In this document: positions 5,035 to 48,583 of the stretch, piece by piece
Position numbering within the stretch: position 1 is the first letter of the stretch
Layout of the letters: each line of letters begins with the position of its first letter
Source: a virus
Virus record (IMG/VR): IMGVR_UViG_3300045988_178905
DNA length: 48,583 bases
Direction: 5' to 3' (one strand)
Notes under the pieces: generated by a model
What the model was told of the DNA's origin: nothing
The model's database searches: none
The model's input: only the letters and a program-made list of their open reading frames with translations
Translations under genes and position numbers: made by a program

Positions 5035-5910
5035 TTATAATAATTCGCTTTTCTTTTTGATTTGTTCCAGATTCGGGTTCAAGTATTTTAATGTGGTTTT
5101 TATACTTGTATGTCCTGCTTGATTTGATACCTCATTGATGCTATATGCTCCACTCTCTAATGCGTTATAACAAAAGAAGTGTCTAAGCATATGCGGATGG
5201 ATATGGTAGCCATCAATACTAAATTCATCAAATACTTTATTGATAGTAGACGGATTCAAAATCTTCCCTTTGCTGTTATGGAATAAATAATCTGATTCCA
5301 CATTATCTGATCTCTGGTATTCCCTTATTGCCGAGATAACCTTAGAATTGATAATAACAGTTCTTTGTTTTTCGCCTTTTCCGTCTGCTACTCTAATCTG
5401 ACTCGCAGCAGTGTTTACATCTACCTTTTTCAAATGCAATACTTCTGATATTCTTAATCCTGCATAAGCCATAATGGTGACTATTGCATAATTCCGTTTT
5501 GCGGAACATCCTTCAGATTGCAACACTCTTTGTCTGAACTCTTCAACTTCCTTTTTCGTGATATTGGTAGGACTGATTATTTCCGCTTGTATCTTTATTA
5601 AGTCTGCTTTGCTTATTACAATGTTATCTGGTTGCATCAGCTCATTATATTTAATAAGTGCAGATAACTTTGCATTGATGGACTTTGCATTTAGATTCTG
5701 TCCTGTTCTCTTACAGATTTTCACATTCTTCAAATAGCTTTTATATTCCAGAATATTTTCCCTATACAGCTTCTTAAATTCTACATCCCCGAAGCTGTCA
5801 TTAAACCATCTGAAAAATTCCTTTACCGAAGCAACATATATTTTGATTGTCTTTTCGGATTTTCCCTCTAAGTGCATCTTGTTTTCAAAATCCCTTATCA
5901 GTTCATCCAT
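5035..5910 (-). CDS. Tyrosine recombinase, XerC/XerD-like (291 aa)
   Basis: AGLRISEVLHLK (Arg I), HPHMLRHFF (H-x-x-R), GHTSIKTTLKYL (His..Tyr nucleophile). N-terminal SAM-like core-binding domain. Confidence 0.9.
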   Translation of the reverse strand: MDELIRDFENKMHLEGKSEKTIKIYVASVKEFFRWFNDSFGDVEFKKLYRENILEYKSYLKNVKICKRTGQNLNAKSINAKLSALIKYNELMQPDNIVISKADLIKIQAEIISPTNITKKEVEEFRQRVLQSEGCSAKRNYAIVTIMAYAGLRISEVLHLKKVDVNTAASQIRVADGKGEKQRTVIINSKVISAIREYQRSDNVESDYLFHNSKGKILNPSTINKVFDEFSIDGYHIHPHMLRHFFCYNALESGAYSINEVSNQAGHTSIKTTLKYLNPNLEQIKKKSELL

Positions 5911-10404: not shown

Positions 10405-10677
10405 TTACTTGATTCGTAACACACTGTATGTCGTTGTTTTGGTGTACTCTTCCAGACTTCCTAAATCTTCCTCAAGTCTTTTCTTGTCTAAAGTAGAGCG
10501 AACCTGCGACTTATAGGTAATTTTTGCCGTGTCTGTAATTTCTTCTGTAAGGTTGTTTTCATTCATATAAGAAATAACCTCAGCTTCCAGAGCATTTTCA
10601 ATGTTGCTTGCTTCCTCAATCATTGTTTTGTACTTTCTGATTTCTTCAACCTTTGCTTCTAATTCTTTTTTTGTCAT
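10405..10677 (-). CDS. Coiled-coil protein (90 aa, MTKKELEAKVEEIRKYK...)
   Basis: Trimmed to the internal Met with AAGGAGG RBS. The upstream part of the track ORF runs through the operator array. Confidence 0.65.
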   Translation of the reverse strand: MTKKELEAKVEEIRKYKTMIEEASNIENALEAEVISYMNENNLTEEITDTAKITYKSQVRSTLDKKRLEEDLGSLEEYTKTTTYSVLRIK

Positions 10678-10747
10678 AATGACTACCTCCTTAAATATGT
10701 TTGATTGATTTTGTGTAGGTCTGTTTTGTTTGACCTTGTAACTGTAT

Positions 10748-10910
10748 TGTACACTCGTTAGTGTGCAATGTCTATTGACGAAATATACAAAATGTACACT
10801 AGTTAGTGTCGTTTTATTATACAAGTTCACTACTTAGTGTACATATTACACAAGATCATTGTACACTCTTTAGTGAATTTGTATATTGATATTGTACACT
10901 TGTTAGTGTA
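10748..10910. promoter_or_regulatory. Array of five operator palindromes tGTACACT-nnTT-AGTGTa in a divergent promoter region
   Basis: Copies at 10748-10765, 10793-10810, 10825-10842, 10860-10877 and 10893-10910. The last fills the spacer of a TTGATA(10886-10891)-17nt-TATTAT plus-strand promoter. Confidence 0.75.
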
Positions 10911-10963: not shown

Positions 10964-11476
10964 ATGAAATATTTTAAGAATGTAGAAACACTGGAAGAAT
11001 TAAGAAAACAGTACAAAGAGCTATTAAAGAAGTACCATCCCGACAACCCAAACGGATCTACAGAAGCAACGCAAGAAGTCAATGCTGAATATGATACATT
11101 ATTCAAGACATTAAAAGACAGACACGAACACGGAGCAAGCGACACCAACGACAACAAAACAGATTATAATAATATGAAGTATGATTTTTCAGAAGATGAA
11201 AAACTAAGGGAAGTATTACAGCATATTGTTACAATGGAAAATATCAATATTGAAATTGTAGGTTGTTGGATATGGATAGACGGCAACACATACGAACACA
11301 AAGACACTTTAAAGGCTTTAGGGTTCAAGTGGGCAAGAGAAAAAAAGAAGTGGTATTTTCATACAGAATCATTCAGAAAAAGAAGCCACAAAAAATTATC
11401 TATGGACGATATAAGAAACTACTATGGAAGTACAGAAGTAAAGACAGAGGAAACAAAGAGATTAAAACAAGCGTAA
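10964..11476 (+). CDS. J-domain (DnaJ-like) protein (170 aa)
   Basis: EELRKQYKELLKKYHPDNPNGSTEATQEVNAEYDTLFKTL with the HPD tripeptide. Confidence 0.85.
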   Translation: MKYFKNVETLEELRKQYKELLKKYHPDNPNGSTEATQEVNAEYDTLFKTLKDRHEHGASDTNDNKTDYNNMKYDFSEDEKLREVLQHIVTMENINIEIVGCWIWIDGNTYEHKDTLKALGFKWAREKKKWYFHTESFRKRSHKKLSMDDIRNYYGSTEVKTEETKRLKQA

Positions 11477-11840: not shown

Positions 11841-11869
11841 AGCAATAACATAATATAATTATAACACAA

Positions 11870-11901: not shown

Positions 11902-11934
11902 GTATGCTCTATTGATATTTTTTAATGTCATTAT

Positions 11935-17226: not shown

Positions 17227-17294
17227 GGGGGTAAAAGGGGTGGGTAGTAACATATATATATCTTAGTTACACCCCTACCCTTTTACCTACCCTT
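17227..17294. repeat. G-rich iteron-like inverted repeat flanking an (AT)n spacer
   Basis: Left arm GGGGGTAAAAGGGGTGGGTAGTAAC. Spacer ATATATATATCTTA. Right arm GTTACACCCCTACCCTTTTACCTACCC containing tandem CCTACCCTT x2 (17274-17282, 17286-17294). It abuts the stop codon of the replication protein. Confidence 0.6.
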
Positions 17295-22242: not shown

Positions 22243-22260
22243 CCTTATTTTAAGCCATTT
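22243..22260. repeat. 18-bp direct repeat CCTTATTTTAAGCCATTT, copy 1 (candidate att site)
   Basis: Exact second copy at 32824-32841, and both are followed by NNAGG. It lies 58 bp beyond the integrase stop codon. Confidence 0.9.
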
Positions 22261-22288
22261 CTAGGTATTTATTTGATTTATTTTCGTG

Positions 22289-24946: not shown

Positions 24947-27900
24947 TTATTTATATAACCTCGCATTACCTATACCATTCTTACCAAGTTGTTTGGCAGA
25001 AACTGCTTCAGTAATACATTGTGTTGTCTTTCCGTTCCTGAGAATTTCTTCTCGTAATTGTCTACCAAAGGTTTCAACATCGTTGACACCTTCCATTTTG
25101 ATATCACCAATCTGGATAGTAGTATTTCCAGAGTTGCTTACATTCCTTGACATATCAGGTAACTTCGTAAACTGACTTGTAATTCCCATCTGTGCAGGAT
25201 TCATCTGTGCCATTTTCCAAAGATTCTCAGTCATCTCATTTGTGAACACTTTATCTCCTGGATTAAGTTTTGTTAAAACTGCACCGTCAGAAGCACGATA
25301 AATCATTTCTCGTTTATCTTCTTGTGTCCATGCTAATTGACGCTTATCAATATGTTTTGAGCCTTTTTCGTAACCTTTAAGACTTACTAAATCTTTATCA
25401 AGTTGTGCCGACTGCTTATCAAGATCAGCTATGAATTGTTGCAACATATCTTTGTTATGAGTTACATCCTGTATCATAGCATTGAGTCCACTCTTTTTCT
25501 CGATATAATTATTTTTTAAATCCTGTAGTTTATCTTTATTCTTCGTAGAAGATTTTTCAAACTGGTATTTATTTTCTATAGAATTCAATTCACCGTATAA
25601 CTGTTTTAACTGACTTTCAAGTTCCTTAATCTGATTTTGAAAAGACTGCCTCTGACCATTAATTGCTTTTTTCTTTTGTGCGATTCCGTTTTTCTTTTTA
25701 GCTATATCAGCCTCTTTCGCAGGATCATAACTGCTAGTATCAGTTTTAGAATTAACCTTATTTTGATCATTAGTCACAGTATTATGAACGTAATCTTTTG
25801 CGGCTTGACCACCATCGCCACCATTCGTGGTACTAGAACCAATTTGATCTTTTGTATCATTTGTAAGATTAGAATCTAATCCCTTAATTGTTTCAATAAT
25901 ATCACTGCCAAGAAGAGTTTTAATCTCATCAAGAATAGTATTTGTATCATTGAGCTTTTCATCAATGAATTCCTGGTAATCATTCATTAAATCATCAAGC
26001 ATATCCTCAGTATCGGAAATGAATTTTTCGTATTGTGTATCTTTTAAATCGCTTTTAGCTTCTTCAAGCTGTACTTTTAGTTTCTGAATTTGTGCACGAG
26101 ATTCCTCAGAATCATTACCATTGTAAGCAGTTAACTGTTTCTGTAAAGAAGCAATAGTCTTTGTTTTTTCAGCAATTTCCTTTTGATATTTATAGGCTTC
26201 AAGTTCGGAGTCTTTCAGTTTCTTGTATTTATCAATCAACTCGCTCAATGCATCAGTTTGAGCTTCGTAACCCTGTTTTACCAAATCCTGAATTGACTGT
26301 AATTCATCTTCGGCAGATTTCTTCGCATCTCTATGAGCATCCTGTAAATCACGCAGACGTTGAATAACATTTTCGTCAGACAGGGATAATTCACCCTTTT
26401 CTATCTGTCTCATAATCTTGTTATATTCACGTTGATACTCATCTGCCTGTGCAAGATAATTATCATAATTTGTTTTATGCAGACCAATAGTAGCTGTGCC
26501 ATATTTTGTAAAGTTACCAGTGTCTTTATCCGTCATATCTTTATGGCTCATAAGATCAATATAATAATCATTTTCACTGTTGATACGTTTTACAGTTTCC
26601 ATAGATTTATCAAAAGCATCCCATTTTAACTGACGAAGAGCATTCTGATATTCAACGATAGACTGTGTAGACTCGTCTATAGCATTTGTTACTTCGTTGA
26701 TTGCAGAAACCATTTCATGCCATTCATCGCTGCCTTTTTTGATAGAACCTTTGATAACAGCATCATTTAGACTCTTTTGAAGATCTTTTCTTTCTTTAAT
26801 AAGTTTGTTTTTCTCACCTTTTTCAGAGGAGATAAGAGACTTATAATAAGCCGCACTTATCTGTTTGCCCTGTTCTTGTGCGAGTGAAATCTTATTATTA
26901 AGTGCTGTCTTTTTCTGCTCGTTGCTAGAAATTTTGTTGTCGTAATCACTTGAGATATTATCAAATTTTTCTTTCGCAAGATCTGCTTTATCCTGTTTTG
27001 CTGTTTCTTTATACAGGTCAGCAGTTGCTTTGTCTGATTGTTTTGCATCCCAATATGCATTGTACTGTACACATGCATTGTAGAGCTTACCATTATCATT
27101 CAGTTTAGAAGCCTTGTCCAATAAAGATTGTGAAATACGTTTGTCAGCTTTTGCAGCTTTCTTGATAGAAGCAAGAACCTTTTTATTTTCTTTAGTGGAT
27201 TTGAATTTACCGATCGTTTTCTTTGCAGATTTGAGATTTTTATTATCAGTTGTTACAACAGAATTATATATATTCTGTCTCTTTGTGATATTAGAAATCT
27301 TTTTATTAATCAACTTATTCTTTGTCTTTGCAGACGTAGCATTGTCAATTTTAGCATCATACAATTCGTCTTGGGAATCATATTTCTCTGTCTTTTTATC
27401 AGCAGTAGCTTTTGCTAATTCAGCAGCGGCAGTAGCATTTTCCTGCATTTGCTGTTTCAAATCAATCAGAGAAGCTTTGTTCGAATCAATACGCTCATTA
27501 TACTCATACCAAGCTTCAGAGCCTTTTGTCACTGTTTTCTGTAACAATTTTAACTGCTCATCTTGCTTGATAATAAAGTCAATCTGCTTTTGGATATTTT
27601 TGTTCATACTATCATAGTTCTTAGTATTTGCAGAAAATCCCCATGATTCTTTTAAAGAGATCCATTTCTCCATGCGGTCATTCGCATTTTCAACTTTTGT
27701 AGAAAGCTTTTCATACTGAGTGATAAGTAATTCGATACTTGCTTGAGTTAATTCAAGCTGTTTATCTTTTAACTCATCTATTTTATCCAAACAATCCTGC
27801 GCTTTATCGTACCAACTCTGATAGTCTTTGATTTGCTGTTTTACAGTATCATCTGAATAATCCCATATATTAGAAGCTCCACCACGAACAGCAGAAGCAA

Positions 27901-30900
27901 TATCTTCATTAAGACCAACTTCATTTGCTTTCTGCATATATTTGTTGTAATCATCTGTGAGAAGTTCAATGCCAAATGTTGCAGCGTTTAAAGCCTCTTT
28001 ATATGCATTTAAACGAGATGTGAACGAAGAAGAAGTTTTGTCTACTTTATCTTCGAGTTTAGAAAATGCTTTATCAAAACGATTGATACCATTTTCAATA
28101 AAATCAAATGTTTCTGCAACAGCTTCTTTTACATCTTTTGCAGCATCCTTGGCTGCTTTTGCAGCATCATTGACCGCTTTACTTGTAGCAGAGCCACCAG
28201 AATAATTAGCATAAAAATTGGATGCGTCAAGATTGTATGCACCATTTTTTATATCGTCTAATGTCTTTGCAAGTGTATCCGTAGCATCCTGTACAGCATC
28301 TTTCGTCTTCTGTGCCTGTTGCTGTTTTGCAAACTGGTCAATCTTAGAATTCCCGCTAGAAGGTGTATTTAATTTCCCAGGGTTCAGAAGATTAAGGCTA
28401 TTCATCCCACCGCCAGAGTTTGCCCATTTATCAATCTTCGCATTACTAAGAGAAGCTAACGCAGTTTTTAATGCTGCAATCTGAGCTGCACTTGCACCTG
28501 CCGCATTTGCGATAGCAATAATGTTATCTACATCGGCTTTTGTGTCCAGCTTAATATTATTAATATCAATTTTTGACAGTGCTAAATTAGCAAGATACTG
28601 TTGTGTCTCCTGAGAAGCGTTACCTTCAGCAATTAATGCAGAAATTTCTTCCCATGTTGCATTCGCAAGATCAATACATCCATTAGCTGTAGCATATTTC
28701 TGTGCTGCTAAACGAGCCTCGACCATTTCTTCTGCATTGGCTACGCCCATCTGTTCAAGCATAGCAACAGTGCCAGCTTTTGTATCTTCTGTAAGATTTT
28801 TCATTACATCTGAATTATTGATATATTCAGTTGTAAGTTTATTAAAAGCAGATTGACATGCACCTAAGTCGGAAGGTGAATTTGCAATTGTTTTAATAAA
28901 ATCATCATAAACGCTTCCTAATTCACCAAATTGTTTTTTGAAATCTTCATTATTAAGAATAGAAGACCAATCAAAATCTTCTTTATCGTATACATCAGCA
29001 TAGATTTTATCTAATTGGTCTAAACCTTCGGAGAGGGCTTGAACTTGTGCAAGTGTACCAGTAAATGTTTTTGAAAAGTCCTCTTGATTCAACAATTCAT
29101 CTACTTTATCAAGTTCGTTCTCCAGAGGAATGCTGTAATAGCCTTCAAACTCAGGAACTGTCGATAGATAATTGTTAATCGCATCGGTAATCTCCTTTTC
29201 GTTTCCAATAAATTGTTCGCTTGCAACTGCTGTATCAATCAGCTCTTGCTTAAATTTGTTAAAATCTTCTTCTGTCTTAGGTAATTCATTACCCTGTAAC
29301 GCTGTCAACATTGTCTGTTGAGCCAAGTTTTCATTTAAGTTATCAATAGATGAATTGTATGCCTCTACTGATTCCTTCATCTCACTATATCTACTATAGA
29401 TAGAATTAAACAGTGAATTGTCTGATAATTCATCAGCCGTGAATGCTTCTGAATCTCTTAATGCGTTTACTGCATCTTCAAGTTTTTTGTAATTTTCTAA
29501 TGCTCCCTCAACTGTATCATCGCCAATTAAAACCAACTGACCACCACCAGTACCATATGAACCACTATCAATTACACCAGCTTTTTCAAGCTCTTTAAAT
29601 GCTTTTACTGCTTCTTCTCCCGATGCACTAATAATGTTGTTAGTACCCCAGAAGTTGTCTTTTGCAACATCCATCAACTCTTCTTTTGCTGCATTTACAC
29701 CAGCAATCAAGTCTGTCTGTTGATTTTTCAATGAATCAATGCTTGCTTGTTTAATGGCATTTGATAATGAACCATACTTTGCAATTAAATCATCAATGCT
29801 TTCTCCTTCAAGTCCAAGTTTCTTTAATAACTCTGTCTGTGTAGTCATTAAGTCTTCTTTAGCACTTGCATCTGTTTTTACCGCATCCGATAATTGGATG
29901 TATTTGTTTGCTAATGTAGCAATCTCGTCACCTAATGTATTGGCTGCATCTGCTGCTTCTTTAGCTTTTTGTCGTGCTTCCTCTACAGCTTGATTATGCT
30001 TAGATACTGCGGATGTTACTGCACTAACTCCAAGACTTATACCCATAAGTACAATTCCTACTGGATTGCTAAGAAATACACTCTTTAATGTAGCACCAAG
30101 TCCAGTCATAGCCGCTTTCAGCGAAAATGTACTTGCTGTACTAGTTGTATTAGCTGCGGTCTGTGCATTTGTCGCTTGCGTCAGATTCATCTCAGCAAGT
30201 TTCTGTAATGCCATCTCTTTTGTCATACCTTGCATCTGTAAAATACGCACTCTGTCAGCCTGAGTAAGTGTGTTTGTGGCTAATACATTTCTTAACTGTT
30301 CTGTTGTCAATGTACTTGTTGCCTGTGCAATACTCTTTAATGCCTGGAATCTAGCAGATAAGTTACCATTCGGAACATTACTTGCCATCTGTAAGGCTTT
30401 TCCATATTGCTCTACTTGTTTTGTAGCTGTAATGAGTGCCATACCACCAGTAGCAATAAACTTACCAAGATTGAGTGCAATTACACCTTTTAGCGTACCT
30501 TCTACAATTCCCCAATTATTAGCAAATTCCAAAACTGCCGAACCTAAATTGGCAAGGTCACGTACTGTATTACCATTGATAATACTCTGATATGTCTCTG
30601 TAAGAGTGTTAGAAAACCTCTGACACGCTGCGTCAGCACTGGTCATCCAAGTTTGATACTCTTCTGTAGCACTTCCTGCACTATTGATTGCATCTTCATA
30701 AGCTGATGCAGATTCCTTCATACCAGATAAAATAGCGGCACCTGCTGCACTTCTCGATTTACCGAACATAGTCTCAAGAACATTCGCACGTGAGGTATCA
30801 TCCAACTTATCCATAACTTGTGAAATCTCGTATAACTGGTCATAATAAGATTTGAATGTATGCTCATCTTCCATAATATCAACACCAGTTAATGCCATGA

Positions 30901-32143
30901 GCTTTTCACGCAAGTTACTTGTGGCTGTTGCTAAATCGTCAACTTCTTCGCCCATCTCCTGCAACTCTTCAATAGCATCTGTATCACCAGATGAAGCTCT
31001 CATTCTTAATGAACCGATCTTTGCTGTGTTACCGAGGTATGACGGATCATTATAGTATTTATTTGCTGTAGCAAACATTGTAGCAGCTTGTTCAATACTC
31101 ATATGTGCTTCTGTCAATGTACCAGCCGATAATCTAATGCTTTCGGCTAACCCTTCCGCATCAATACTGTACTTGTTTGACATATTATTGATGAGGTCTG
31201 TATAGGCTTCAAGTTTCTTGTCCATCTGGTCGTTTCCATAACCACCAATTTCATCAAATGAAGCAATAGAAGTCTTAATTGAACCGATTGCCGTATCAAT
31301 GTCTACATCTCCAACGTTTGATAAGATGTTCGCCCACTTCGCCCCAAGTTCCGCATCGTCTAAATCCCAACCAAGTTTTTTGAGCTCTGTCACAGCATCA
31401 ATCAATGAACCAACTTTTACATTAAGTTCCTGTGCCTTGCTAAGAGATTTATCAAAATACTTATATAATGCGTCTCTGTCAGAAATTTCATCTGTTACTT
31501 TCTGAAGATTTACAAGACTATCATCTAATGTCTTTGCTTCGGTTGCTGCATTTCTGACCTGATTAGAAATGGCATAAACAAGACTTGCACCACTAAAAAA
31601 TTTCGTATAACTCTTAACAGATTCTTTAAATTTACTTCCCCAAGTCATACCTGCATTATTCGTTGCTACAAGCTCCGTCTTAAATGCCGATAACTCACCT
31701 CTGAGAGTTTTTAATTCACCTGTACTCTTTGCTACATTAGCAGCATTAAGCAACTGATTGTATTTAGCGGTCATTTCATGATTATTGAAAAGTTTGTTGT
31801 TGTTTCTTCCCAGAATCTTAATCTGGTTCACTAACTGTTGCTTGCTTGTATCAAAGTTCAGATGAACCTTATTATTATTTGCAACCCTCTGTGCGTTGTT
31901 AATTGCCTGTTTGGTTGCCGACTGTACACCTTTTGTATTTACATTCGGTGTGATGTTGAATGTAAGATTATTTAATCCCTTCAACTGTGCTTTGATTGCT
32001 TTCCTTGTCTTTGACATATCAAGGTTTCCAATCAGCTTGACGTACATATCGCCAAGACTTTTTGCGTCTGACTTAATCTGTTGCTTGCTTTTCGTTTTGC
32101 TAAGACCAGCAACAAGATTTACAATAAAGTCATTTACTGCCAT
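24947..32143 (-). CDS. Phage tail tape-measure protein (~2398 aa)
   Basis: Trimmed to MAVNDFIVNL (AAGGAGG RBS; coordinate +/-1). Minor-tail/TP901-type core ...NNMSNKYSIDAEGLAESIRLSAGTLTEAHMSIEQAATMFATANKYYNDPSYLGNTAKIGSLRM. Hydrophobic Gly/Ala-rich segments (GIVLMGISLGVSAVTSAV) and very long coiled coils. C-terminal GYEKGSKHIDKRQLAWTQEDKREMIYRASDGAVLTKLNPGDKVFTNEMTENL resembles the canonical TMP C-terminus. Confidence 0.85.
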   Translation of the reverse strand: MAVNDFIVNLVAGLSKTKSKQQIKSDAKSLGDMYVKLIGNLDMSKTRKAIKAQLKGLNNLTFNITPNVNTKGVQSATKQAINNAQRVANNNKVHLNFDTSKQQLVNQIKILGRNNNKLFNNHEMTAKYNQLLNAANVAKSTGELKTLRGELSAFKTELVATNNAGMTWGSKFKESVKSYTKFFSGASLVYAISNQVRNAATEAKTLDDSLVNLQKVTDEISDRDALYKYFDKSLSKAQELNVKVGSLIDAVTELKKLGWDLDDAELGAKWANILSNVGDVDIDTAIGSIKTSIASFDEIGGYGNDQMDKKLEAYTDLINNMSNKYSIDAEGLAESIRLSAGTLTEAHMSIEQAATMFATANKYYNDPSYLGNTAKIGSLRMRASSGDTDAIEELQEMGEEVDDLATATSNLREKLMALTGVDIMEDEHTFKSYYDQLYEISQVMDKLDDTSRANVLETMFGKSRSAAGAAILSGMKESASAYEDAINSAGSATEEYQTWMTSADAACQRFSNTLTETYQSIINGNTVRDLANLGSAVLEFANNWGIVEGTLKGVIALNLGKFIATGGMALITATKQVEQYGKALQMASNVPNGNLSARFQALKSIAQATSTLTTEQLRNVLATNTLTQADRVRILQMQGMTKEMALQKLAEMNLTQATNAQTAANTTSTASTFSLKAAMTGLGATLKSVFLSNPVGIVLMGISLGVSAVTSAVSKHNQAVEEARQKAKEAADAANTLGDEIATLANKYIQLSDAVKTDASAKEDLMTTQTELLKKLGLEGESIDDLIAKYGSLSNAIKQASIDSLKNQQTDLIAGVNAAKEELMDVAKDNFWGTNNIISASGEEAVKAFKELEKAGVIDSGSYGTGGGQLVLIGDDTVEGALENYKKLEDAVNALRDSEAFTADELSDNSLFNSIYSRYSEMKESVEAYNSSIDNLNENLAQQTMLTALQGNELPKTEEDFNKFKQELIDTAVASEQFIGNEKEITDAINNYLSTVPEFEGYYSIPLENELDKVDELLNQEDFSKTFTGTLAQVQALSEGLDQLDKIYADVYDKEDFDWSSILNNEDFKKQFGELGSVYDDFIKTIANSPSDLGACQSAFNKLTTEYINNSDVMKNLTEDTKAGTVAMLEQMGVANAEEMVEARLAAQKYATANGCIDLANATWEEISALIAEGNASQETQQYLANLALSKIDINNIKLDTKADVDNIIAIANAAGASAAQIAALKTALASLSNAKIDKWANSGGGMNSLNLLNPGKLNTPSSGNSKIDQFAKQQQAQKTKDAVQDATDTLAKTLDDIKNGAYNLDASNFYANYSGGSATSKAVNDAAKAAKDAAKDVKEAVAETFDFIENGINRFDKAFSKLEDKVDKTSSSFTSRLNAYKEALNAATFGIELLTDDYNKYMQKANEVGLNEDIASAVRGGASNIWDYSDDTVKQQIKDYQSWYDKAQDCLDKIDELKDKQLELTQASIELLITQYEKLSTKVENANDRMEKWISLKESWGFSANTKNYDSMNKNIQKQIDFIIKQDEQLKLLQKTVTKGSEAWYEYNERIDSNKASLIDLKQQMQENATAAAELAKATADKKTEKYDSQDELYDAKIDNATSAKTKNKLINKKISNITKRQNIYNSVVTTDNKNLKSAKKTIGKFKSTKENKKVLASIKKAAKADKRISQSLLDKASKLNDNGKLYNACVQYNAYWDAKQSDKATADLYKETAKQDKADLAKEKFDNISSDYDNKISSNEQKKTALNNKISLAQEQGKQISAAYYKSLISSEKGEKNKLIKERKDLQKSLNDAVIKGSIKKGSDEWHEMVSAINEVTNAIDESTQSIVEYQNALRQLKWDAFDKSMETVKRINSENDYYIDLMSHKDMTDKDTGNFTKYGTATIGLHKTNYDNYLAQADEYQREYNKIMRQIEKGELSLSDENVIQRLRDLQDAHRDAKKSAEDELQSIQDLVKQGYEAQTDALSELIDKYKKLKDSELEAYKYQKEIAEKTKTIASLQKQLTAYNGNDSEESRAQIQKLKVQLEEAKSDLKDTQYEKFISDTEDMLDDLMNDYQEFIDEKLNDTNTILDEIKTLLGSDIIETIKGLDSNLTNDTKDQIGSSTTNGGDGGQAAKDYVHNTVTNDQNKVNSKTDTSSYDPAKEADIAKKKNGIAQKKKAINGQRQSFQNQIKELESQLKQLYGELNSIENKYQFEKSSTKNKDKLQDLKNNYIEKKSGLNAMIQDVTHNKDMLQQFIADLDKQSAQLDKDLVSLKGYEKGSKHIDKRQLAWTQEDKREMIYRASDGAVLTKLNPGDKVFTNEMTENLWKMAQMNPAQMGITSQFTKLPDMSRNVSNSGNTTIQIGDIKMEGVNDVETFGRQLREEILRNGKTTQCITEAVSAKQLGKNGIGNARLYK

Positions 32144-32358
32144 AAATCTTTTTCCTCCTTTTTGAATTTTTCTTATTGACAATTCCATTTCCCATCTGAT
32201 ATAATCAAAATGGTTTATTTTACTCATTTTGTCGCATAAAAAATAAAAGGTTGTGAGATAAACACTCACACATAATTGGAATTTCTGATTGAATTATCAT
32301 AGAAAAATAGAATTGATATTTATTATATAAACGCATAGAAACGTAAATATCTGAAGGA

Positions 32359-32613: not shown

Positions 32614-32823
32614 CTTTTATGGGGTGTCATATAAACTGTTTTTCGTGTGCCAATATCATTTATTGTTTTGAATACGATACTATTTTTATGAAATACACAA
32701 GCTGTTTGAGGACTTATGTATCTTTGAAGAAGTACACTCATAACTTGTCGGTGTCAAACTCACCTTCAAGCCCAATTTATATGTCTTTCCATATATATGC
32801 GAAAATAATCACTCCAAGAAAAC

Positions 32824-32841
32824 CCTTATTTTAAGCCATTT
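32824..32841. repeat. 18-bp direct repeat CCTTATTTTAAGCCATTT, copy 2
   Basis: Exact match to 22243-22260 in the same orientation. Confidence 0.9.
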
Positions 32842-32893
32842 GCAGGACTTTAACTTGCGAAAATATGTTCGATTTTACGAAAACTAACACGAA

Positions 32894-34279
32894 CTATCGT
32901 CTGTTACACTTATCGCAATTACCAGTACCATTCCCCATCTGCTTTGCATAAAACATCCTACCGCATGAGGAACATCTTTTAACCGCCTTATATTTCATAT
33001 AGACACGCTCATTATCCTTTTTCAGAATCTGCACTTTATTCTTCTTACTATCAATGATAAATACGTTTACTTCCTGTCCTTCCTTGTATTTACCATTAGA
33101 AGTGAATGGGTACTCTCGCCCTTTATCCTCAATAAAAACTTTTCCCGACTTACTTCTTGTATCATATGATTGTATGATACCTTTTTTTATGTCCTTTTCT
33201 TTCGGCTGTTCCAATACATCAAACTCACCAAATGCCACTACAAATATCTGCTCCCATATATTTTCAAAATCAGTTATTACAAGTGCCACTTCTTCATTAT
33301 CTGCATTATCCCTATCAACACAAAAGGTCATACGATAATACATATTTACTTCTATCTCTCTAGGAACTGCCACTTTCGGCAATACCTTTTCAAAATATCC
33401 ATCGTCCTGTAATTTCTTATAATCTTGAATCATAGCTTTGCTGTCACTTCTGCCCTCAACTTCAACAATCGGATTATATTCAAGCAATCGTTCCATGATA
33501 TACACCGCATAATCCCTATGATTATAATATCTGTTCTGATCCGCTTTCTGCCATGCCAATAATAGACAAGCTAATCTTACTATCCTGCGACCATCTTTAT
33601 CATTGGTGCGATACTTCTTACTGATTTCCTTTATCTTCTGAATCTCACTCTTGTATATCACAATCGGTTTGTCATTAAAAAATACCTCACAATCACGATC
33701 TTGTTTTGTGTCGTTCAAATACTCTCTGATAAAGTTTACCAGTGATTCACTTTTCTTAGGATTTCCGTCTTTATCATAAGAATCGACTTCATATAGATTT
33801 TTGAAAATCTTTTTACTCTTTCTATCCTTATTCTTTTCATCTGCAATATACTCTTCATTGGTGTATAAGCAAAGTCGCTCCATAATTTCATCTTTTCTGG
33901 TCTTGAAAACCTCTTCAATATCATCAATCGTCCAATCTTTCTTGCCTGTCATTTTGACAATATCATATTTTATCATCTTCTCTATTGTACGAGGCTTATA
34001 TGTAGGTATTTTGCGGATATATTCATACTCTCTGACATTGATTTTGTCATTAAGTATTTTATCCAATAGTTGTTTATCCGTAATATTTAAGGCTCTCTTT
34101 ATATGTGCAAAATGCAGCAGTATTTGCTTTTTCTGCTCTTCCTCTGATAAGCTGTCGTAATTCTCAATAACATCATGGATTACAGCAAGGTTGTCCTTGC
34201 CATAATCAAATGTTTTCATTATGCTTCTACATTTATATTCGTCTGAAAAATCAGCACATAGTATATTACTTCTAATCAT
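32894..34279 (-). CDS. Unknown protein translationally coupled to the RNAP gene (461 aa); OB/S1-like segment plus C-terminal zinc ribbon
   Basis: Start at MIRSNIL (GAGGAGG-6nt-ATG, with ATGATTAG overlapping the RNAP stop). GIIQSYDTRSKSGKVFIEDKGREYPF...EGQEVNVFII. C-terminus CSSCGRMF...CDKCNRR. Confidence 0.7.
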   Translation of the reverse strand: MIRSNILCADFSDEYKCRSIMKTFDYGKDNLAVIHDVIENYDSLSEEEQKKQILLHFAHIKRALNITDKQLLDKILNDKINVREYEYIRKIPTYKPRTIEKMIKYDIVKMTGKKDWTIDDIEEVFKTRKDEIMERLCLYTNEEYIADEKNKDRKSKKIFKNLYEVDSYDKDGNPKKSESLVNFIREYLNDTKQDRDCEVFFNDKPIVIYKSEIQKIKEISKKYRTNDKDGRRIVRLACLLLAWQKADQNRYYNHRDYAVYIMERLLEYNPIVEVEGRSDSKAMIQDYKKLQDDGYFEKVLPKVAVPREIEVNMYYRMTFCVDRDNADNEEVALVITDFENIWEQIFVVAFGEFDVLEQPKEKDIKKGIIQSYDTRSKSGKVFIEDKGREYPFTSNGKYKEGQEVNVFIIDSKKNKVQILKKDNERVYMKYKAVKRCSSCGRMFYAKQMGNGTGNCDKCNRR

Positions 34280-37200
34280 CTTCTTCCTCCTCAATGTTTC
34301 TATCTTCTTCCCAGAATACAATGTCTTTTCCAAGAATTGTTATCGGCTCATTGTCTGTATATTTCTTTGCTTCTGAAGGTACAGCAAAATCAATTTTCTT
34401 CTTGCTATAAGGAATAACATCTAAAATATCATCCCCCATAACCTTCCAGATAAAATTATTGATACTGGTGTACTTGCTCTTTGGATATTCCTTTAATACA
34501 GTTACCAGCATATTAAAGATTTCAGCAAATCCAACCTTTAATTCTGTGAGTAATTCCTTCCTTGTGTCGAATATCAAGGCATCTAATTTACTAACTGTAA
34601 AAGTCTGCGTCTTTTCTTCTGTACTCTTGTGATTCTTTTTGCTGTAAATCTTCATCAGTTCCGACACAAACTTTTCATAGGTGGACTTGATAAACTTCTT
34701 TTCGGATGGTGTGACCTTTACTTCCTTTGCATAACTCATAAGGATATAGCTGTCTGCACTCTTCCATTTTTCCTTCATAGTCTTATCAAGTTCTTCCTCA
34801 AAGATTTCCAGTTTCCAACAAATCTTATTCATAAGGCAGTCTGTAAGAAGTAAAGGGCAGTTATCCTTGTAATAATTCCAGAAGTATTTTTCGTCCTCTG
34901 TTACTAATTTTCTCTTACCATGCATTACATCCTTTACAAATGTATCAATGGATTCAAAGGTGTACATCTTGCAAATATCCCTCATTCTGGACTGATACTT
35001 TGTGTACTTATCCTTGTAATTACTCTTAACATTGATGAAAAAGTATGGTAAATAGTTCGGAATATACTTGTTACTCTCTTGAAGTTTCTCTGCATACTTT
35101 TCTTTTTCTTTCTGTGTGGATCTTCTGATTTCATCTTTCTGCTCTTTCCAATTAGCAATCTTAAATTCCTGTGATAGCTTCGGTTTCACACCTGTCTTTG
35201 TAGAATCAATCTCTTCTCCGATTAAGAATCTATCCTTCTTAATGCTCTTAAATAATTCAAGCTGTCCAACGCTGCAATCATACTCTGGATAGTTCAGATC
35301 AGTATGGTGTAGATATTCTGGATGCTTTACAACCTTATTTCCATTTTCATCTACTGTGATTTCCGCTTTTTCTTCATCAACCGGGAATAATGGCATCATT
35401 GCAAATAGGCTTGTACTCATATTAGAATATACACCGACCTCATTACCAAATCCCTGTTTATCTGATTCCGTGGCTTCTGTAATGTCATATTTTTTCGGTG
35501 TCATGTTGTCTACACCTTTTTCATAAGTCGTAGGGTAAACATCCCACGCATTATTGATATAAACCTCTGAATTGAACGTACAAACCATGTCACTGTCAAA
35601 ATCACTATCACTGTGTTTTACTGTAGATAAATCATGTAAACTGTAGATAATTCCGCTATTGATATACTTATAATATCGTTCCATTTCATCATAGATTTCT
35701 GGTGTGATACCAAGCCTATACACGTTATCTTTGTTGCAAACATCCAAAATATTATGTTCTGCAATATCGGTCATTGGAGAACGGCAAGCATCAATTTTTT
35801 CAACTCTCTTTTTCATCCAATACTTGCTATATACTGCATTAGGTGGAATAAGACCAATTCCATTCGCTTCAATATCTCTTGTGACCTGTGTTGCTCTATG
35901 CTTATGTGAATCGGAAATACCCCCTTTTTCATCCATCCAATAGTACCAATTAAAAGCCCATTGACATAAAGCATATGGATCACTAATCATAAACTGATAA
36001 TTACTGTTCCCATCGGGATATAATTTTCCTGCCTTTGCACGATTCAAATAACTTTTGATGATTTTCTGAATTTGACCGCCCACATATTTATCTTTTATCA
36101 AATCAGGATTTTTCAGTAGGGCATTATTCAATGTGGTAGTTTTCAATTCCTCTTCTGCATCTACATCCTCATTATCTGCCCCATTATCTTCCTCACAATC
36201 AATGTCTGATTCTTCATCGTCCATATCTTCTTCATCTTCTGTGTCCGACAAATCTTTTATATCTTTTGCAAGTGCATATAAAATGTATTCTGGCTTACCT
36301 TCGGCAAGTAATCTTAAATACTTCTCTGTAGGCGCAATCAGCTTATCAATATCTTCATCTTCACGAACATTACTTGTCGTTGTGAGCTGGTAATTCTGAC
36401 GCACACAATCTTTTTCATCCTTTGGTTTAGGCGCAACTCTCTGTACTCCCCACAATGCTTCTGGATTTCCATTATAAAGGTCAAAATTGCAACCCATACC
36501 ATCTGATTTATACAATTTCTTATATTTCCATTGTGATTCTGTCAGAATAACATCCACATCCTCAATCGGGATATACTCTATTTCGTCCTCACTCATACCT
36601 TTGTATCTGACATCTACAATCGTTTCAAATCCTTTTTCCCTGGCATATTCCATAATAGGAAATGTTACAAGCAAGCCTTTTACACCAATACTTCTAGCAT
36701 TAAAGGCAGATGGGATATAGTCAATGTGTAAATCTTTCGCCCATTTCTCCGCGAATGTCGGTGTAATCAATCCCATACCATCAAAGGAATTGAGATATGC
36801 TGTATGAATAATATTTCCATTTTCATCTTCTTCCCACTTTGTTTCAAAGAATGGTCTTGTATCAATGTCATAAGTGAAACTATCTGAATCTTCATCCTTA
36901 TTTTTCTTCACAAAGTAGACCAAATGATTTTTATTGTTCTTATCCTTAAAGGTTATATATTCAAAATCGGGAATAACCACAACTCTAGGCTTTCTAACAA
37001 ATATACAGCCTGTTGTAGTAAGTCCCTCATATGCTCCAAATTTAGAAGGTGGTAATATTTCAGATGTTTTTACATCAAGCTGGAAGCCTACTCTGATTTT
37101 CGGCAACACCTTATCAAGAATATCTTCCTGTATGAATAAAACTGTGTTCTGTTTCAGATTTCCACTACTAGCACTTCTTCTGACATACTTTTTGCCATTG

Positions 37201-37703
37201 TAATAAAATCCTTTTTTTGAAAACTTGTCATAGCCTGTCTTATTTGTTTCAACGCTGATAACATATGGGAAAAATAAAAACTTCTCCATGTCCATTATCT
37301 TGTCATTGATAGCATTGATCCTACCCTCTGTCGGATGCTCATTTGCTTTTCGTTTCAACTTCTTAATCTCTTTTCGCATCTCTTTTAATTTCAGATATGC
37401 TCTATATTGTTGTTCATTCGGTGTAATATCTTCCCCATTTTCATCTATGGTTGTTTCAGGACTTACAACCTCTCTGATTTTTTGAAAAAGAATGTTATCA
37501 CCAATAGTAACAAGTCCGCTATCTCCATATGATTTAGTCAGCCAATCAATCAACGGAATTTCTGGAATACTATAAAATTCAATCTCTCCACTACCCTTTT
37601 CTTTCTTTTCATGCTTTCTGTTAGGTGTATTGATTATCATTCTTGAACTCAATTTCAATATTTTATATTGAACTGGTACAAATCCTTCCTCTTTCTGTTT
37701 CAT
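34272..37703 (-). CDS. Single-subunit double-psi-beta-barrel RNA polymerase, cellular-RdRP/YonO-like (1143 aa)
   Basis: Track numbering: aa 313-355 FDGMGLITPTFAEKWAKDLHIDYIPSAFNARSIGVKGLLVTFP; aa 645-659 ACRSPMTDIAEHNIL; aa 704-713 SDSDFDSDMV (nt 35589-35609, DxDxD metal loop). The order and spacing match the RDR/QDE-1/YonO family signature. Start trimmed to Met7 (GGAGA RBS). Confidence 0.75.
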   Translation of the reverse strand: MKQKEEGFVPVQYKILKLSSRMIINTPNRKHEKKEKGSGEIEFYSIPEIPLIDWLTKSYGDSGLVTIGDNILFQKIREVVSPETTIDENGEDITPNEQQYRAYLKLKEMRKEIKKLKRKANEHPTEGRINAINDKIMDMEKFLFFPYVISVETNKTGYDKFSKKGFYYNGKKYVRRSASSGNLKQNTVLFIQEDILDKVLPKIRVGFQLDVKTSEILPPSKFGAYEGLTTTGCIFVRKPRVVVIPDFEYITFKDKNNKNHLVYFVKKNKDEDSDSFTYDIDTRPFFETKWEEDENGNIIHTAYLNSFDGMGLITPTFAEKWAKDLHIDYIPSAFNARSIGVKGLLVTFPIMEYAREKGFETIVDVRYKGMSEDEIEYIPIEDVDVILTESQWKYKKLYKSDGMGCNFDLYNGNPEALWGVQRVAPKPKDEKDCVRQNYQLTTTSNVREDEDIDKLIAPTEKYLRLLAEGKPEYILYALAKDIKDLSDTEDEEDMDDEESDIDCEEDNGADNEDVDAEEELKTTTLNNALLKNPDLIKDKYVGGQIQKIIKSYLNRAKAGKLYPDGNSNYQFMISDPYALCQWAFNWYYWMDEKGGISDSHKHRATQVTRDIEANGIGLIPPNAVYSKYWMKKRVEKIDACRSPMTDIAEHNILDVCNKDNVYRLGITPEIYDEMERYYKYINSGIIYSLHDLSTVKHSDSDFDSDMVCTFNSEVYINNAWDVYPTTYEKGVDNMTPKKYDITEATESDKQGFGNEVGVYSNMSTSLFAMMPLFPVDEEKAEITVDENGNKVVKHPEYLHHTDLNYPEYDCSVGQLELFKSIKKDRFLIGEEIDSTKTGVKPKLSQEFKIANWKEQKDEIRRSTQKEKEKYAEKLQESNKYIPNYLPYFFINVKSNYKDKYTKYQSRMRDICKMYTFESIDTFVKDVMHGKRKLVTEDEKYFWNYYKDNCPLLLTDCLMNKICWKLEIFEEELDKTMKEKWKSADSYILMSYAKEVKVTPSEKKFIKSTYEKFVSELMKIYSKKNHKSTEEKTQTFTVSKLDALIFDTRKELLTELKVGFAEIFNMLVTVLKEYPKSKYTSINNFIWKVMGDDILDVIPYSKKKIDFAVPSEAKKYTDNEPITILGKDIVFWEEDRNIEEEEDD

Positions 37704-38048
37704 ATAAATTTCTCCAATCATACTAATTTTGTATTATGCCTGTTACAGAACGTGCTTTTATCAATGGAGATGTTTGAACTCTCTACAAATAAATACACCT
37801 TCTATTTATAATATTCTCCACTTAGGAAGAAACTTTTTTGATTTTTTCGTGTTCCATATTCAGTTATCATCATTACTTTTGAATACTGCGTGAATAACGC
37901 TTGAAAAGCCATTACATAAGCTATGAAAACTCATGTAACGACTATTGAAAATTCTTGATAAGAAATACTGGTTTCATTGGATATTTCAAAATAAAATGTT
38001 GCCTACATAGGGAAGATATTGAAGGTCACTTTTTCGGAAAATGCAATT

Positions 38049-41117: not shown

Positions 41118-41162
41118 TATAAATTCTCCTTTATTTATGAAAATTGTACTTATCAATTATCA

Positions 41163-47031: not shown

Positions 47032-48150
47032 TTACTTGCTAATTCTCTTTGCTCTTAACTTCTCTAATGCTGTCAATCCCTTTGGCTTATTTGCTGTAGA
47101 TACCGTCTGTTCCACTGTTGGGGTAGCGAAAATATCAATGTTCTTTCCTGTCCTAACCTCTGTTGTAGCCTTTTGCGAATTTTTGATAATGTCCGCTTCT
47201 TTTTGAATGCTCTCTGTCATTGCATCCACTCTACTGTACGGCATTGTCAGACCGCTAAGAATAATCACATTTTCCTCTGATTCTGACAGATAGCCGTGAA
47301 ACTCGGTTGGTGCAATTCCGATCTCTTTTCTAAGATCAGTCATATCAATTTTGCTTTCCTTTGCAGATACCGCTTCGGAGATACCCATTGTCGTAATGGT
47401 CTTATCTTCCCTCTTTGCAAAGATATTACTGTCACGATTCAGTACATCAATAATATTCGCTGTCGTTCCGTTGTTCTTATTGGCTCTTGTGATAATGGAA
47501 AATGATGGAGTTAAAATGCACGCTTCGATCTCGGCTAAATCCATGTTTCCATCCTGCGACTTATTATTGATGCAAAGAATGCTTGCAAATAATGAAGCAA
47601 ATGTGCTGTTAATCTTCATCTTCTCGGTTGCGTTGTTGTCCAGAATGTAGATACTTCCCATTCGTGGCTTCAATTCCTCGATCTCATAAAATGTCTGTCT
47701 TGCATTGTCTCTAATTTTTAACGATTCATTATCAGCCGGTAGTACCACGATCATTCCTACCTTGTAACCTTCATCAAGAAGAATTTCCGCAAGCTGTGGT
47801 GCGATTGCCGAACCGGTGCCTCCTCCTAATGATGTAGCAATGAATACAATCGAATCTTCTATAATATAGCTGTGAAGTTCATCCAGTATCGTATCAATGC
47901 TTTCTGCTAAATCCTGTACACCGTTTTCCCGGTTACAAGCTGCCCCCTTTGAATTGTTCATATGAATCTTGTGGGATAACTTGACAGATGCCAAATCCTC
48001 TGTACTGGTGTTGATGCCTACAAATGATGTATTGGCTTTATTACCGCCTAAATCATTCACGCTTTCTTCAATCCTTGCCGTGATCGAACCGCCAGCCTGT
48101 CCACATCCAATAACTGTGATCTTCAATCTCTCGTTGATGTTTTTATTCAT
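47032..48150 (-). CDS. tubZ: TubZ/PhuZ-like tubulin-family GTPase (372 aa)
   Basis: T1 loop ITVIGCGQAGGSI. Tubulin signature SLGGGTGSAIAP. Typical size, with an extended basic C-terminal tail (KPKGLTALEKLRAKRISK). Confidence 0.85.
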   Translation of the reverse strand: MNKNINERLKITVIGCGQAGGSITARIEESVNDLGGNKANTSFVGINTSTEDLASVKLSHKIHMNNSKGAACNRENGVQDLAESIDTILDELHSYIIEDSIVFIATSLGGGTGSAIAPQLAEILLDEGYKVGMIVVLPADNESLKIRDNARQTFYEIEELKPRMGSIYILDNNATEKMKINSTFASLFASILCINNKSQDGNMDLAEIEACILTPSFSIITRANKNNGTTANIIDVLNRDSNIFAKREDKTITTMGISEAVSAKESKIDMTDLRKEIGIAPTEFHGYLSESEENVIILSGLTMPYSRVDAMTESIQKEADIIKNSQKATTEVRTGKNIDIFATPTVEQTVSTANKPKGLTALEKLRAKRISK

Positions 48151-48436: not shown

Positions 48437-48474
48437 CTACTTACTAATGCACCTTTTACAAGTGAAATTCCCCT
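48437..48474 (-). promoter_or_regulatory. 38-nt conserved upstream motif, copy B (paralog at 5991..6028)
   Basis: CTACTTACTAATGCAC...ATTCCCCT immediately upstream of tubR. Confidence 0.5.
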
Positions 48475-48484: not shown

Positions 48485-48583
48485 ATTTTTTTTATTAAGT
48501 TGTCAATGTACCGTGTTTCTTCTATATAAATGTGTTTTGGAAATAAGCAATTAGCAGACCGCTAACGCTTGACTAAAAGAATG
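48485..48583. repeat. Terminal direct repeat, copy 2 (identical to 1..99)
   Basis: Exact 99-nt match to the window start. Confidence 0.95.

Follow-up and report, generated by a model that had tools for sequence, protein, structure and literature searches.

We analysed a 48,583-nucleotide (nt) stretch of viral DNA, IMG/VR record IMGVR_UViG_3300045988_178905 (hereafter the window, meaning the whole stretch at its full length). It carries a plasmid-like element on which the gene for a large single-chain RNA polymerase (RNAP) of the YonO family is followed, on the same strand, by an overlapping gene for a 461-amino-acid (aa) partner protein. Partners of this kind were found directly 3' of YonO-like polymerase genes in many other elements, and their C-terminal zinc ribbon resembles the C-terminus of YonO, the enzyme of phage SPbeta. 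The polymerase belongs to a known kind of enzyme, and it is the family-wide partner and its relation to the YonO C-terminus that form the more informative result. Features of the locus and of the element are collected in Table 1.

Table 1. Positions of the polymerase, its partner and other features in the window. Polymerase residues are numbered in the 1149-aa frame; ORF, open reading frame; pLDDT, predicted local distance difference test; OB, oligonucleotide/oligosaccharide-binding.
Feature	Position	Strand	Basis or remark
YonO-family two-barrel (double-psi beta-barrel) RNA polymerase gene	34272..37703	-	1143 aa; ORF, start choice, YonO homology, Foldseek
Beta-like barrel block F313-P355 (DGMG...PSAFNARSIGVKGLLVTFP)	36657..36785	-	Invariant D314, K348/G349; RDR2 and YonO alignments
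TESQWK (T394-K399)	36525..36542	-	K399 invariant; aligns to YonO TKSQFK
Acidic loop, residues 489-528, in connector between barrels	36138..36257	-	23 D/E in 40; pLDDT <50, predicted disordered
ACRSPMTDIAEHNIL, residues 645-659, R-x-P signature of beta-prime-like barrel	35745..35789	-	Invariant R647, P649; aligns to YonO LRSPHLFREH
Catalytic metal-binding loop DSDFDSD (D705-D711; D707, D709, D711)	35589..35609	-	Invariant in 39/39; aligns to YonO DNDGD, RDR DLDGD
ATGATTAG 8-nt overlap, partner ATG over polymerase TAG stop	34272..34279	-	Sequence read; overlap kept in relatives
Partner gene, 461 aa, expanded member of YonO-associated protein family	32894..34279	-	46 homologues; model pLDDT 83.5
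Partner conserved core, residues ~181-341, predicted winged-helix-like unit	33257..33739	-	hhalign to short partners
Partner beta-rich OB/cold-shock-like domain, residues ~353-432, between core and ribbon	32984..33223	-	Clade-specific; Foldseek
Partner C-terminal C4 zinc ribbon, C436, C439, C455, C458 (CSSCGRMFYAKQMGNGTGNCDKC)	32906..32974	-	Invariant CxxC...CxxC columns
Conserved non-coding block TTTCGCAAGTT(G/A), ~30-40 nt after partner stop	32851..32862	-	Candidate promoter element or terminator
Second conserved non-coding block GTGATTAT-N7-TATATATGG	32789..32812	-	Candidate promoter for downstream genes
Giant tape-measure-like gene, 2440 aa from GTG (2426 aa as called elsewhere)	24947..32269	-	PF10145
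DUF3102 fused to ParB-like nuclease domain, and adjacent phage-type ClpX-like ATPase with C4 zinc finger	38908-39876, 39897-41156	-	Kept upstream of polymerase in relatives
TubZ-type tubulin-like GTPase (partition)	47032..48150	-	PF00091, PF13809, PF22340; ~10 kb upstream of polymerase, same strand

The polymerase ORF is uninterrupted up to a first ATG at 37721 (34272..37721, minus strand), which would give 1149 aa. A second ATG, at 37703, has a GGAGA Shine-Dalgarno sequence 8 nt upstream, and the N-termini of relatives (MKK...QY.ILK) line up with it; because of both features the 1143-aa product is the better gene model. Residue numbers are kept in the 1149-aa frame, the one in which the catalytic aspartates are D707, D709 and D711.

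In an alignment of 39 sequences, with identity down to 23%, residues D314, G315, K348, G349, K399, R647, P649, D707, D709 and D711 are invariant, which places the polymerase motifs far above chance. The F313-P355 block aligns to DGIGKIS..PSAFQIRYGGYKG of RDR2 and to DGCG..VRLPWVKGLLVPF of YonO, and on these alignments D314 is the fourth catalytic aspartate of two-barrel RNAPs. K399 would be the second conserved lysine of the beta-like barrel in the published signature (PMC2919709), to judge from the YonO and RDR alignments. Eight residues that are invariant in all two-barrel RNAPs define that signature (PMC2919709), and column by column the invariant positions found here correspond to it: the Asp triad, the fourth Asp, the Arg and Pro of R-x-P, and two Lys.

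BLASTP aligned the window polymerase with SPbeta YonO (from NC_001884) at E=4e-14, with 23% identity over 615 aa (residues 170-773). The motifs are in register (DGMG/DGCG, GVKGLLVTFP/WVKGLLVPF, CRSPM..EH/LRSPH..EH and DSDFDSD/DNDGD), and the homology spans both barrels, the beta-like barrel being N-terminal to the beta-prime-like barrel. A hidden Markov model (HMM) of the polymerase family matched YonO at E=1e-85. The Pfam family PF05183, RNA-dependent RNA polymerase (RdRP), is matched by 24 of the 39 homologues (E <=0.01; best E=1e-23). Among 5.8 billion proteins, 49 relatives were found, many of them with a precomputed PF05183 match. In PHROGs the window polymerase matches families of unknown function only. 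When the single sequence was compared with PDB sequences by phmmer only chance-level matches were obtained; with the family profile, the DG.G...PSAF.R..KG block was matched in chains of solved plant RDR2 structures (E=6e-7 to 1e-5).

An AlphaFold2 model built from the alignment (pLDDT 85; predicted template modelling score 0.85) gave 23 Foldseek matches in the PDB at E <=1e-3. Ranks 1-21 are chains of RDR2 and QDE-1 (E 5e-14 to 2e-10, probability 1.0), followed by gp62 of Thermus phage P74 and the crAss phi14:2 virion RNAP gp66 (E 2e-4 to 4e-4); gp64 of P32, which like the P74 enzyme is a non-virion RNAP of a Thermus phage, and weak matches to the beta-prime subunit of multisubunit RNAP lie beyond E 1e-3. 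Sequence and model together confirm the window polymerase as a YonO-family two-barrel RNAP with an intact catalytic signature and fold. The first-pass annotation of this DNA, made from the letters alone, had proposed a YonO/cellular-RdRP-type polymerase with three ordered blocks, an acidic insertion between the barrels and translational coupling to the next gene. All of this stands: the positions that it gave for the motifs are exact, the insertion and the ATGATTAG overlap are present, the three aspartates and the KG block that it singled out are invariant, and profile and structural comparisons lead to YonO, RDR2 and QDE-1, with the crAss RNAP lower.

The enzyme kind is already known. YonO-like proteins were noted in 2003, and about 50 in Firmicutes phages and genomes were listed in 2010 (PMC2919709). 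YonO of SPbeta is a processive DNA-dependent RNAP for late genes, and its Asp-triad 3D>3N mutant is inactive (Forrest et al. 2017, PMC5467207). The beta-like barrel of RdRPs and YonO lacks the sandwich-barrel hybrid motif 'flap' insert (PMC7824862). Relatives of the window polymerase already carry the GenBank label 'RNA-dependent RNA polymerase', and a profile search of 1.84 billion cluster representatives at 50% identity found 4,238 clusters at E <=1e-3 and 1,760 at E <=1e-30. Because the family is this large, the polymerase itself is not novel. The statement in the first-pass annotation that only SPbeta YonO and crAss-like RNAPs had been studied was too narrow, as gp64 and gp96 of Thermus phage P23-45 have been studied as well (PMC10770324). 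The non-virion gp64, the tape-measure-fused gp96 and phi14:2 gp66 (6VR4) fall in the same major clade as QDE-1 and the plasmid and phage enzymes (PMC10770324). However, sequence similarity of the window polymerase to the P23-45 and crAss enzymes is undetectable.

What distinguishes the present clade is its size and its insertions. Like YonO, the window polymerase is a single chain on a Bacillota mobile element, with the DG.G, KGLL, RSP..EH and DxDxD motifs in register; however, it has 1143 aa against 839 in YonO. Members of the clade, which collapses to one representative at 50% identity, range from 1084 to 1152 aa, compared with about 920 aa in typical YonO-like members, and carry seven clade-specific insertions. 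The largest is the 40-residue acidic loop, which sits between the K348/K399 barrel and the D707/D709/D711 barrel. In close relatives it is 30-54 aa long and always rich in D/E, with no conservation of sequence, while in distant relatives it is 15-22 aa. The connector between the barrels was described in the P23-45 study as a clamp element near the RNA-DNA hybrid (PMC10770324). It is conceivable that the acidic loop gates DNA entry.

The partner start codon is preceded at 6 nt by a GGAGG Shine-Dalgarno sequence that lies within the last codons of the polymerase (EEEEDD), and in every related locus the partner gene is directly 3' of the polymerase gene with overlapping codons. Neither the partner nor any of its 46 homologues contains a Pfam domain; the partner also has no NCBIfam match, and its PHROGs matches are to unknown-function families only. 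The model begins with a helical region, followed by the conserved core, for which the order of secondary structure elements suggests a winged-helix-like unit. The OB-like domain resembles CspA, YB-1 and S1 domains (template modelling (TM) score to target 0.55-0.63, E >=0.08 in Foldseek). The partner profile had no match among PDB sequences, and Foldseek found no full-length structural analogue in the PDB. A viral structure library gave as its best matches two ~250-aa proteins from uncultured gut siphoviruses (E 1.6e-4 and 1.6e-3), one of which has been automatically named 'RNA polymerase subunit'.

Winged-helix and zinc-ribbon initiation factors are familiar from multisubunit RNAPs, in which archaeal TFE, eukaryotic TFIIE-alpha and the zinc ribbon of TFIIB play this part. 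The likeness of the partner to these factors is one of architecture only, as no sequence similarity or significant structural similarity was detected.

We examined loci of YonO-like genes, comprising 63 from named genomes together with phage, metagenome and IMG/VR loci, and scored the 66 in which the polymerase is on the plus strand. The YonO-associated partner family (cluster 1) is defined here as proteins of ~250-300 aa encoded immediately 3' of YonO-like genes. A cluster-1 partner directly follows the polymerase in 43/66 loci, and a second type of protein of ~280 aa (cluster 2) occupies the same position in 17/66. In 3/66 nothing was found although at least 0.8 kb of sequence follows, and in the last 3/66 less than 0.8 kb is available after the polymerase gene. 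One of the three loci with nothing found (L004) ends within the partner gene, leaving two that are truly without a partner. In 55 of the 60 positive loci the downstream ORF starts at or before the polymerase stop codon; some of the 60 are near-duplicates, so the number of independent events is smaller. They span Bacillus, Paenibacillus, Lysinibacillus, Anaerocolumna, Anaerovorax, Ruminococcus, Lachnospiraceae and others.

Cluster 1 takes in the window type, a 274-aa partner of a Caproiciproducens prophage, and the hitherto unexplained ORFs 3' of the polymerases of Enterocloster phage PMBT24 and Spbetavirus BUCT082. By hhalign, the window partner family matches a profile of 29 short partners with a probability of 95.8% (E=7e-9, 132 columns, residues ~181-341) and the Caproiciproducens partner with a probability of 99.2%. 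A direct HMM search with the short-partner profile misses the window partner, and the link exists at the profile-profile level only. As single sequences the PMBT24 and BUCT082 downstream ORFs likewise showed no detectable relation to the partners, which became visible only with the 29-member profile. Relative to the short form, the window partner has gained ~180 N-terminal residues and the OB-like domain. A zinc ribbon ends nearly all cluster-1 partners, as in CSACNTPIKIKSNKTKYCSSC of BUCT082 and CVNCHTPFRFKSNKSKYCPSC of B. glycinifermentans; the window ribbon lacks the SNK.KYC sub-signature that is common to YonO and Bacillus-type partners. Neither cluster 1 nor the window partner shows detectable homology to the 17 cluster-2 proteins. 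In loci L049-L073, from metagenome-assembled genomes of gut Clostridia and Oscillospiraceae, distant YonO-like polymerases of ~1008-1090 aa are followed by an overlapping gene of the ~280-aa cluster-2 family, which has no zinc ribbon.

SPbeta itself has no separate partner gene: after yonO come a terminator and the HU gene yonN. YonO, alone among 69 polymerases, ends with a zinc ribbon and a basic tail, whereas in the window the ribbon is on the separate, coupled protein. An initial alignment of the short-partner HMM to YonO 726-835 was not upheld at that extent: pairwise comparisons assign YonO 742-796 to the polymerase, where it corresponds to the extreme C-terminus of the separate polymerases (BUCT082 844-899 of 924), and leave 797-839 as partner-like. 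This last segment, which begins right where the separate polymerases stop, matches the ribbon and tail of the partners with 43% identity over 42 aa (E=7e-5). A regular expression for the ribbon signature found 14 partners and YonO and no other protein among 3,713 ORFs. In phage c-st of Clostridium botulinum the downstream protein CST177, which its depositors annotated 'YonO-homolog (C-ter only)', is a full-length short partner (E=3e-59). To judge from these alignments it is quite likely that SPbeta YonO is a fusion that has kept only the ribbon of a partner. This fusion and the near-universal translational coupling argue that the partner works physically with the polymerase. The YonO paper (PMC5467207) and the other papers that could be searched mention no zinc ribbon, C-terminal module or accessory protein, although key papers on the family fell outside that search and may hold an earlier description of the partner. 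The YonO paper leaves open a need for additional promoter-recognition factors (PMC5467207).

The genes that follow the pair suggest what it may transcribe. In c-st, the Caproiciproducens prophage, SPbeta, PMBT24 and BUCT082, polymerases of this type lie directly upstream of late or virion genes. The HU gene and late or virion genes come after the polymerase in the last three of these, and a complete Caproiciproducens chromosome reads helicase, polymerase, partner, small genes, portal, Mu-F, scaffold and capsid. In the window the pair heads a long co-directional gene block, and by analogy with YonO a defined set of element genes would be transcribed. A small helix-turn-helix (HTH) gene comes next, and then the tape-measure-like gene, two genes downstream of the polymerase and the first large gene after the pair. 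The order polymerase, partner, tape measure is kept in four related loci (L005, L006, L009 and L010). Both non-coding blocks after the partner gene are conserved in position among elements whose proteins are only ~51-59% identical, and each occurs once in the window, which would fit the single YonO promoter of SPbeta. Conservation is poor in the 327 nt upstream of the polymerase. A scan for sigma-70-type promoters around the locus found 26 sites, fewer than in shuffled sequences (31.3).

We consider it likely that the window encodes an active DNA-dependent YonO-type polymerase with a coupled partner as its specificity factor, on an episome derived from a c-st/SPbeta-type phage-plasmid. The polymerase would transcribe part of the element independently of the host enzyme, with DNA as the template by analogy with SPbeta YonO, and the partner would be made in step with it through the overlap. 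From its sequence relationships we infer that the partner associates with the polymerase as a factor for initiation or specificity: a nucleic-acid-binding protein in which a helical domain at the N-terminus is followed by a winged-helix-like core, an OB-like barrel and, at the C-terminus, a zinc ribbon. Through this ribbon it would dock on the polymerase, and it would serve to recognise promoters or to form the open complex. The downstream block, from the small HTH gene and the giant tape-measure-like gene onward, is the likely target, and transcription may enter at the conserved non-coding block just after the partner gene. Physical association, DNA template, promoter-specificity role and the identity of the transcribed genes are all inferred. 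The first-pass annotation had called the 461-aa protein OB-like, with a zinc ribbon, and had suggested a specificity or processivity factor. The ribbon is secure in its invariant cysteines and the role is borne out as far as sequence allows, while the OB likeness is weak.

Several observations weigh against this interpretation. The winged-helix and OB assignments of the partner are weak (Foldseek E >=0.08). The link between YonO and the partners is a short ribbon match of ~25-43 aa, with pairwise E values of 1e-4 to 1e-5 in a small search space, and the short-partner HMM match to YonO has a high composition bias. YonO elongates RNA alone in vitro, so catalysis does not depend on a partner. The single-copy non-coding blocks are equally compatible with a host-type promoter or a terminator, and the regions 3' of the partner genes share no k-mer across the family, that is, no family-wide promoter motif. 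The two sigma-like genes of the element could explain its promoter specificity by way of the host polymerase; their presence suggests a second, host-polymerase-dependent layer of control. Lastly, the window polymerase alone has no Pfam or NCBIfam match, with PF05183 absent even at E <=1.

The polymerase might instead act on RNA templates, namely transcripts of the element or of the host, and produce antisense or double-stranded RNA, for example to control copy number, to silence competitors or in defence. Its best solved structural and profile matches are RNA-dependent enzymes, namely the eukaryotic RdRPs QDE-1 (2J7N) and RDR2 of Arabidopsis and maize (7RQS, 7W82), with which it has the DG.G...PSAF.R..KG block and DxDxD in common. 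QDE-1 uses both DNA and RNA templates (PMC9508822), and the cold-shock/S1-like domain of the partner is of a kind that often binds single-stranded RNA. However, the window polymerase is only 10-14% identical to QDE-1 and RDR2, with whole-chain TM scores of only 0.3-0.5, and these enzymes serve RNA interference (RNAi) in eukaryotes whereas the present one belongs to a bacterial mobile element. The ranking of RDR2 and QDE-1 reflects solved structures only, as no YonO structure was found in the PDB copy searched. The closest characterised relative, YonO, is a DNA-dependent transcriptase of phage late genes, and in relatives the polymerase gene heads late operons. We regard an RNA template as quite unlikely and keep to DNA-dependent transcription with the partner as specificity factor.

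The element on which the pair resides belongs to a mosaic family of 36-58-kb contigs. Window positions 1-99 repeat 48485-48583 exactly, and four independent IMG/VR contigs read across the end junction; because of the 99-nt overlap and these contigs the element is a 48,484-bp circle or circularly permuted. Nearly all of its genes are on the minus strand. They include two tyrosine recombinases, several HNH-type nucleases and HTH regulators, and two ORFs resembling sigma factors of the extracytoplasmic function (ECF) type. A 95-aa ORF precedes TubZ, which is 27% identical to the TubZ of c-st. A DNA search with the whole element found no match among annotated phages, and no tRNA or Rfam family is present in the window. 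The host is probably a member of the Lachnospiraceae or of another group of gut Clostridia.

Replication genes bear on whether the polymerase-partner pair might prime replication of the episome, acting like a primase at its origin. Scans with PHROGs, Pfam and NCBIfam recognised no Rep, primase or DNA polymerase family among the window ORFs, and two-barrel enzymes include the replicative DNA polymerase PolD (PMC7708050). A helicase-position gene and several ORFs of unknown function could, however, supply replication functions. Zinc-ribbon and OB modules are common in priming and replication proteins, which also speaks for such a role. Against it, the pair precedes virion genes, not replication genes, in related true prophages, and the iteron-like repeats are 22 kb away. 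These are four direct repeats of ~20 nt (TATTGTACACTnGTTAGTGT) at 10745-10909, with spacings of 45, 67 and 33 nt, in the divergent region between ORF 10405..10830(-) and the DnaJ-domain ORF 10964..11476(+), and are a candidate origin or operator. Priming thus appears improbable, and transcription with a coupled specificity factor remains the favoured function.

The first-pass annotation had described a TubZ-partitioned replicon with two sigma-like genes and almost no virion genes. The TubZ protein (PF00091 and TubZ_C_3) and both ECF-sigma-like ORFs were recovered. Terminase, portal, capsid and tail genes other than the tape-measure-like gene were not found with PHROGs, Pfam and NCBIfam among coding-strand ORFs of at least 125 aa, a search that highly divergent proteins may escape; tblastn with the 512-aa pre-portal ORF, the portal and the Mu-F proteins of a related prophage also found nothing on the element. 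The sizes of the unassigned ORFs leave little room for head genes. To the earlier description must be added the 2440-aa tape-measure-like gene, which by these searches is the only virion-type gene detected on the element. The N-terminal third of its product is homologous to tape-measure proteins of Bacillus siphoviruses, and its length among relatives is 915, 1061, 1764, 1867 or 2440 aa. It contains one DVDID and no polymerase domain.

Such a gene content invites the reading that the element is a decaying phage-plasmid, with the polymerase, its partner and the tape-measure-like gene as functionless leftovers of a late module. The tape-measure-like gene is isolated from any tail module, the element has no detected terminase, portal or capsid gene, and relatives with full virion modules exist. 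However, both ORFs of the pair are intact and long, the catalytic residues and the four ribbon cysteines are invariant across a clade that has diverged to ~51-60% identity, and synteny and overlap are kept in many independent 36-58-kb contigs. The invariant residues and the kept synteny indicate purifying selection on the pair, which makes decay as improbable as priming. Least probable of all is that the polymerase is associated with the virion or with ejection, like crAss gp66 and P23-45 gp96, on a satellite packaged by a helper phage. In its favour, the order polymerase, partner, tape measure is conserved, P23-45 fuses a two-barrel RNAP to its tape measure (PMC10770324), head genes were not detected on the element and IMG/VR classes these contigs as viral. 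Against it, the two genes are here adjacent and separate, the tape-measure-like protein lacks a polymerase domain, and in SPbeta the YonO clade is represented by a non-virion enzyme. Neither a packaging signal nor a gene for a small terminase or for capsid remodelling was recognised, and the model matches RDR and QDE-1 far more strongly than the crAss and P74/P32 structures.

Under the favoured reading, of a transcribing polymerase with a coupled specificity factor, the element would be a circular episome maintained by TubZ and ParB that descends from a phage-plasmid of the c-st/SPbeta type and has lost its head and packaging genes or never had them. SPbeta is a complete phage, in contrast to the window element with no recognisable head or packaging genes. 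The plasmid-prophage c-st (186 kb) has a one-strand order that the window closely parallels: a TubR-like gene, TubZ (CST189), a ParB-like nuclease, a helicase, a YonO-like polymerase and an overlapping partner, followed by HU. It is a TubZ-partitioned episome with its own two-barrel RNAP, as the window element would be. However, it is four times larger, it has kept SPbeta-like late genes (YonG and YonF) after the polymerase module, and its partner CST177, of 276 aa, is of the short type that lacks both the N-terminal extension and the OB-like domain. The window element looks like a small head-less derivative of such a phage-plasmid, in which the partition system, the polymerase-partner pair and a tape-measure-like gene are retained. 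The combination of a polymerase of this type with a TubZ replicon is not as unusual as the first-pass annotation supposed, since c-st already has both and the family is large and long known. The c-st polymerase is split into CST179 (HMM 1-551) and CST178 (571-921; NC_007581 (L090) 8616-12549). A 368-nt gap follows directly after its DxDxD region, and the gene could be a pseudogene, a programmed split or one interrupted by an intervening element.

Other repeats and ORFs of the element were also observed. A 24-nt direct repeat with an identical 18-nt core (AAATGGCTTAAAATAAGG, minus strand) occurs at 22243-22271 and 32824-32852, 10.6 kb apart. Its copies lie just 3' of an integrase gene and of the partner gene, bracketing the segment from integrase to tape measure, and possibly mark a recombination site. 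As a conserved signal the repeat was discarded, as it is not kept in diverged relatives. A 38-nt repeat, 84% identical between 5991-6028 and 48437-48474, lies immediately upstream of the integrase 5035..5910(-) and of the 95-aa ORF before TubZ, and is possibly a shared promoter or ribosome-binding-site region or an operator. The ORF at 17293-19158 (-) encodes 621 aa; more than 400 homologues, 82-87% identical, occur on contigs of many sizes in genomes and metagenomes of Lachnospiraceae. We considered it as a hidden virion gene and found no Pfam domain or name among the more than 400 homologues; distant relatives are present in Bacillus phage Deep-Purple and cyanophage S-TIM5. Its tight conservation suggests a recently spreading mobile gene. 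It adjoins two neighbouring paralogous ORFs of 359 and 419 aa (14738-15817 and 15882-17141, both minus strand) that match the PHROG 'HNH endonuclease' phrog_953 and have no Pfam domain.

A more general proposal, which we put forward tentatively and hold to be somewhat more doubtful than not, is that YonO-type polymerases are as a rule not single-peptide enzymes but two-gene systems with a translationally coupled winged-helix/ribbon subunit for initiation or promoter specificity. SPbeta YonO, the one member so far studied, would then be a reduced form, and the window clade would combine an expanded partner with an acidic clamp-connector loop, possibly regulating DNA entry, on a virion-less TubZ episome where the enzyme would transcribe the tape-measure-like gene.

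The eukaryotic RNAi polymerases arose from a lineage whose bacterial and phage branch is the YonO family, and this family has been discussed as a model of an ancestral single-chain RNA polymerase. How YonO-type enzymes find their promoters has been open since 2017 (PMC5467207), and the coupled ribbon partner is a concrete candidate for this function. For synthetic biology in Gram-positive anaerobes, an orthogonal pair of polymerase and factor that has its own promoter would offer a compact tool. The element family is common in gut Lachnospiraceae metagenomes, where a phage-type transcription module and a tape-measure-like gene persist on a plasmid-like replicon without head genes. Such elements may be satellites, defective phage-plasmids or something else.

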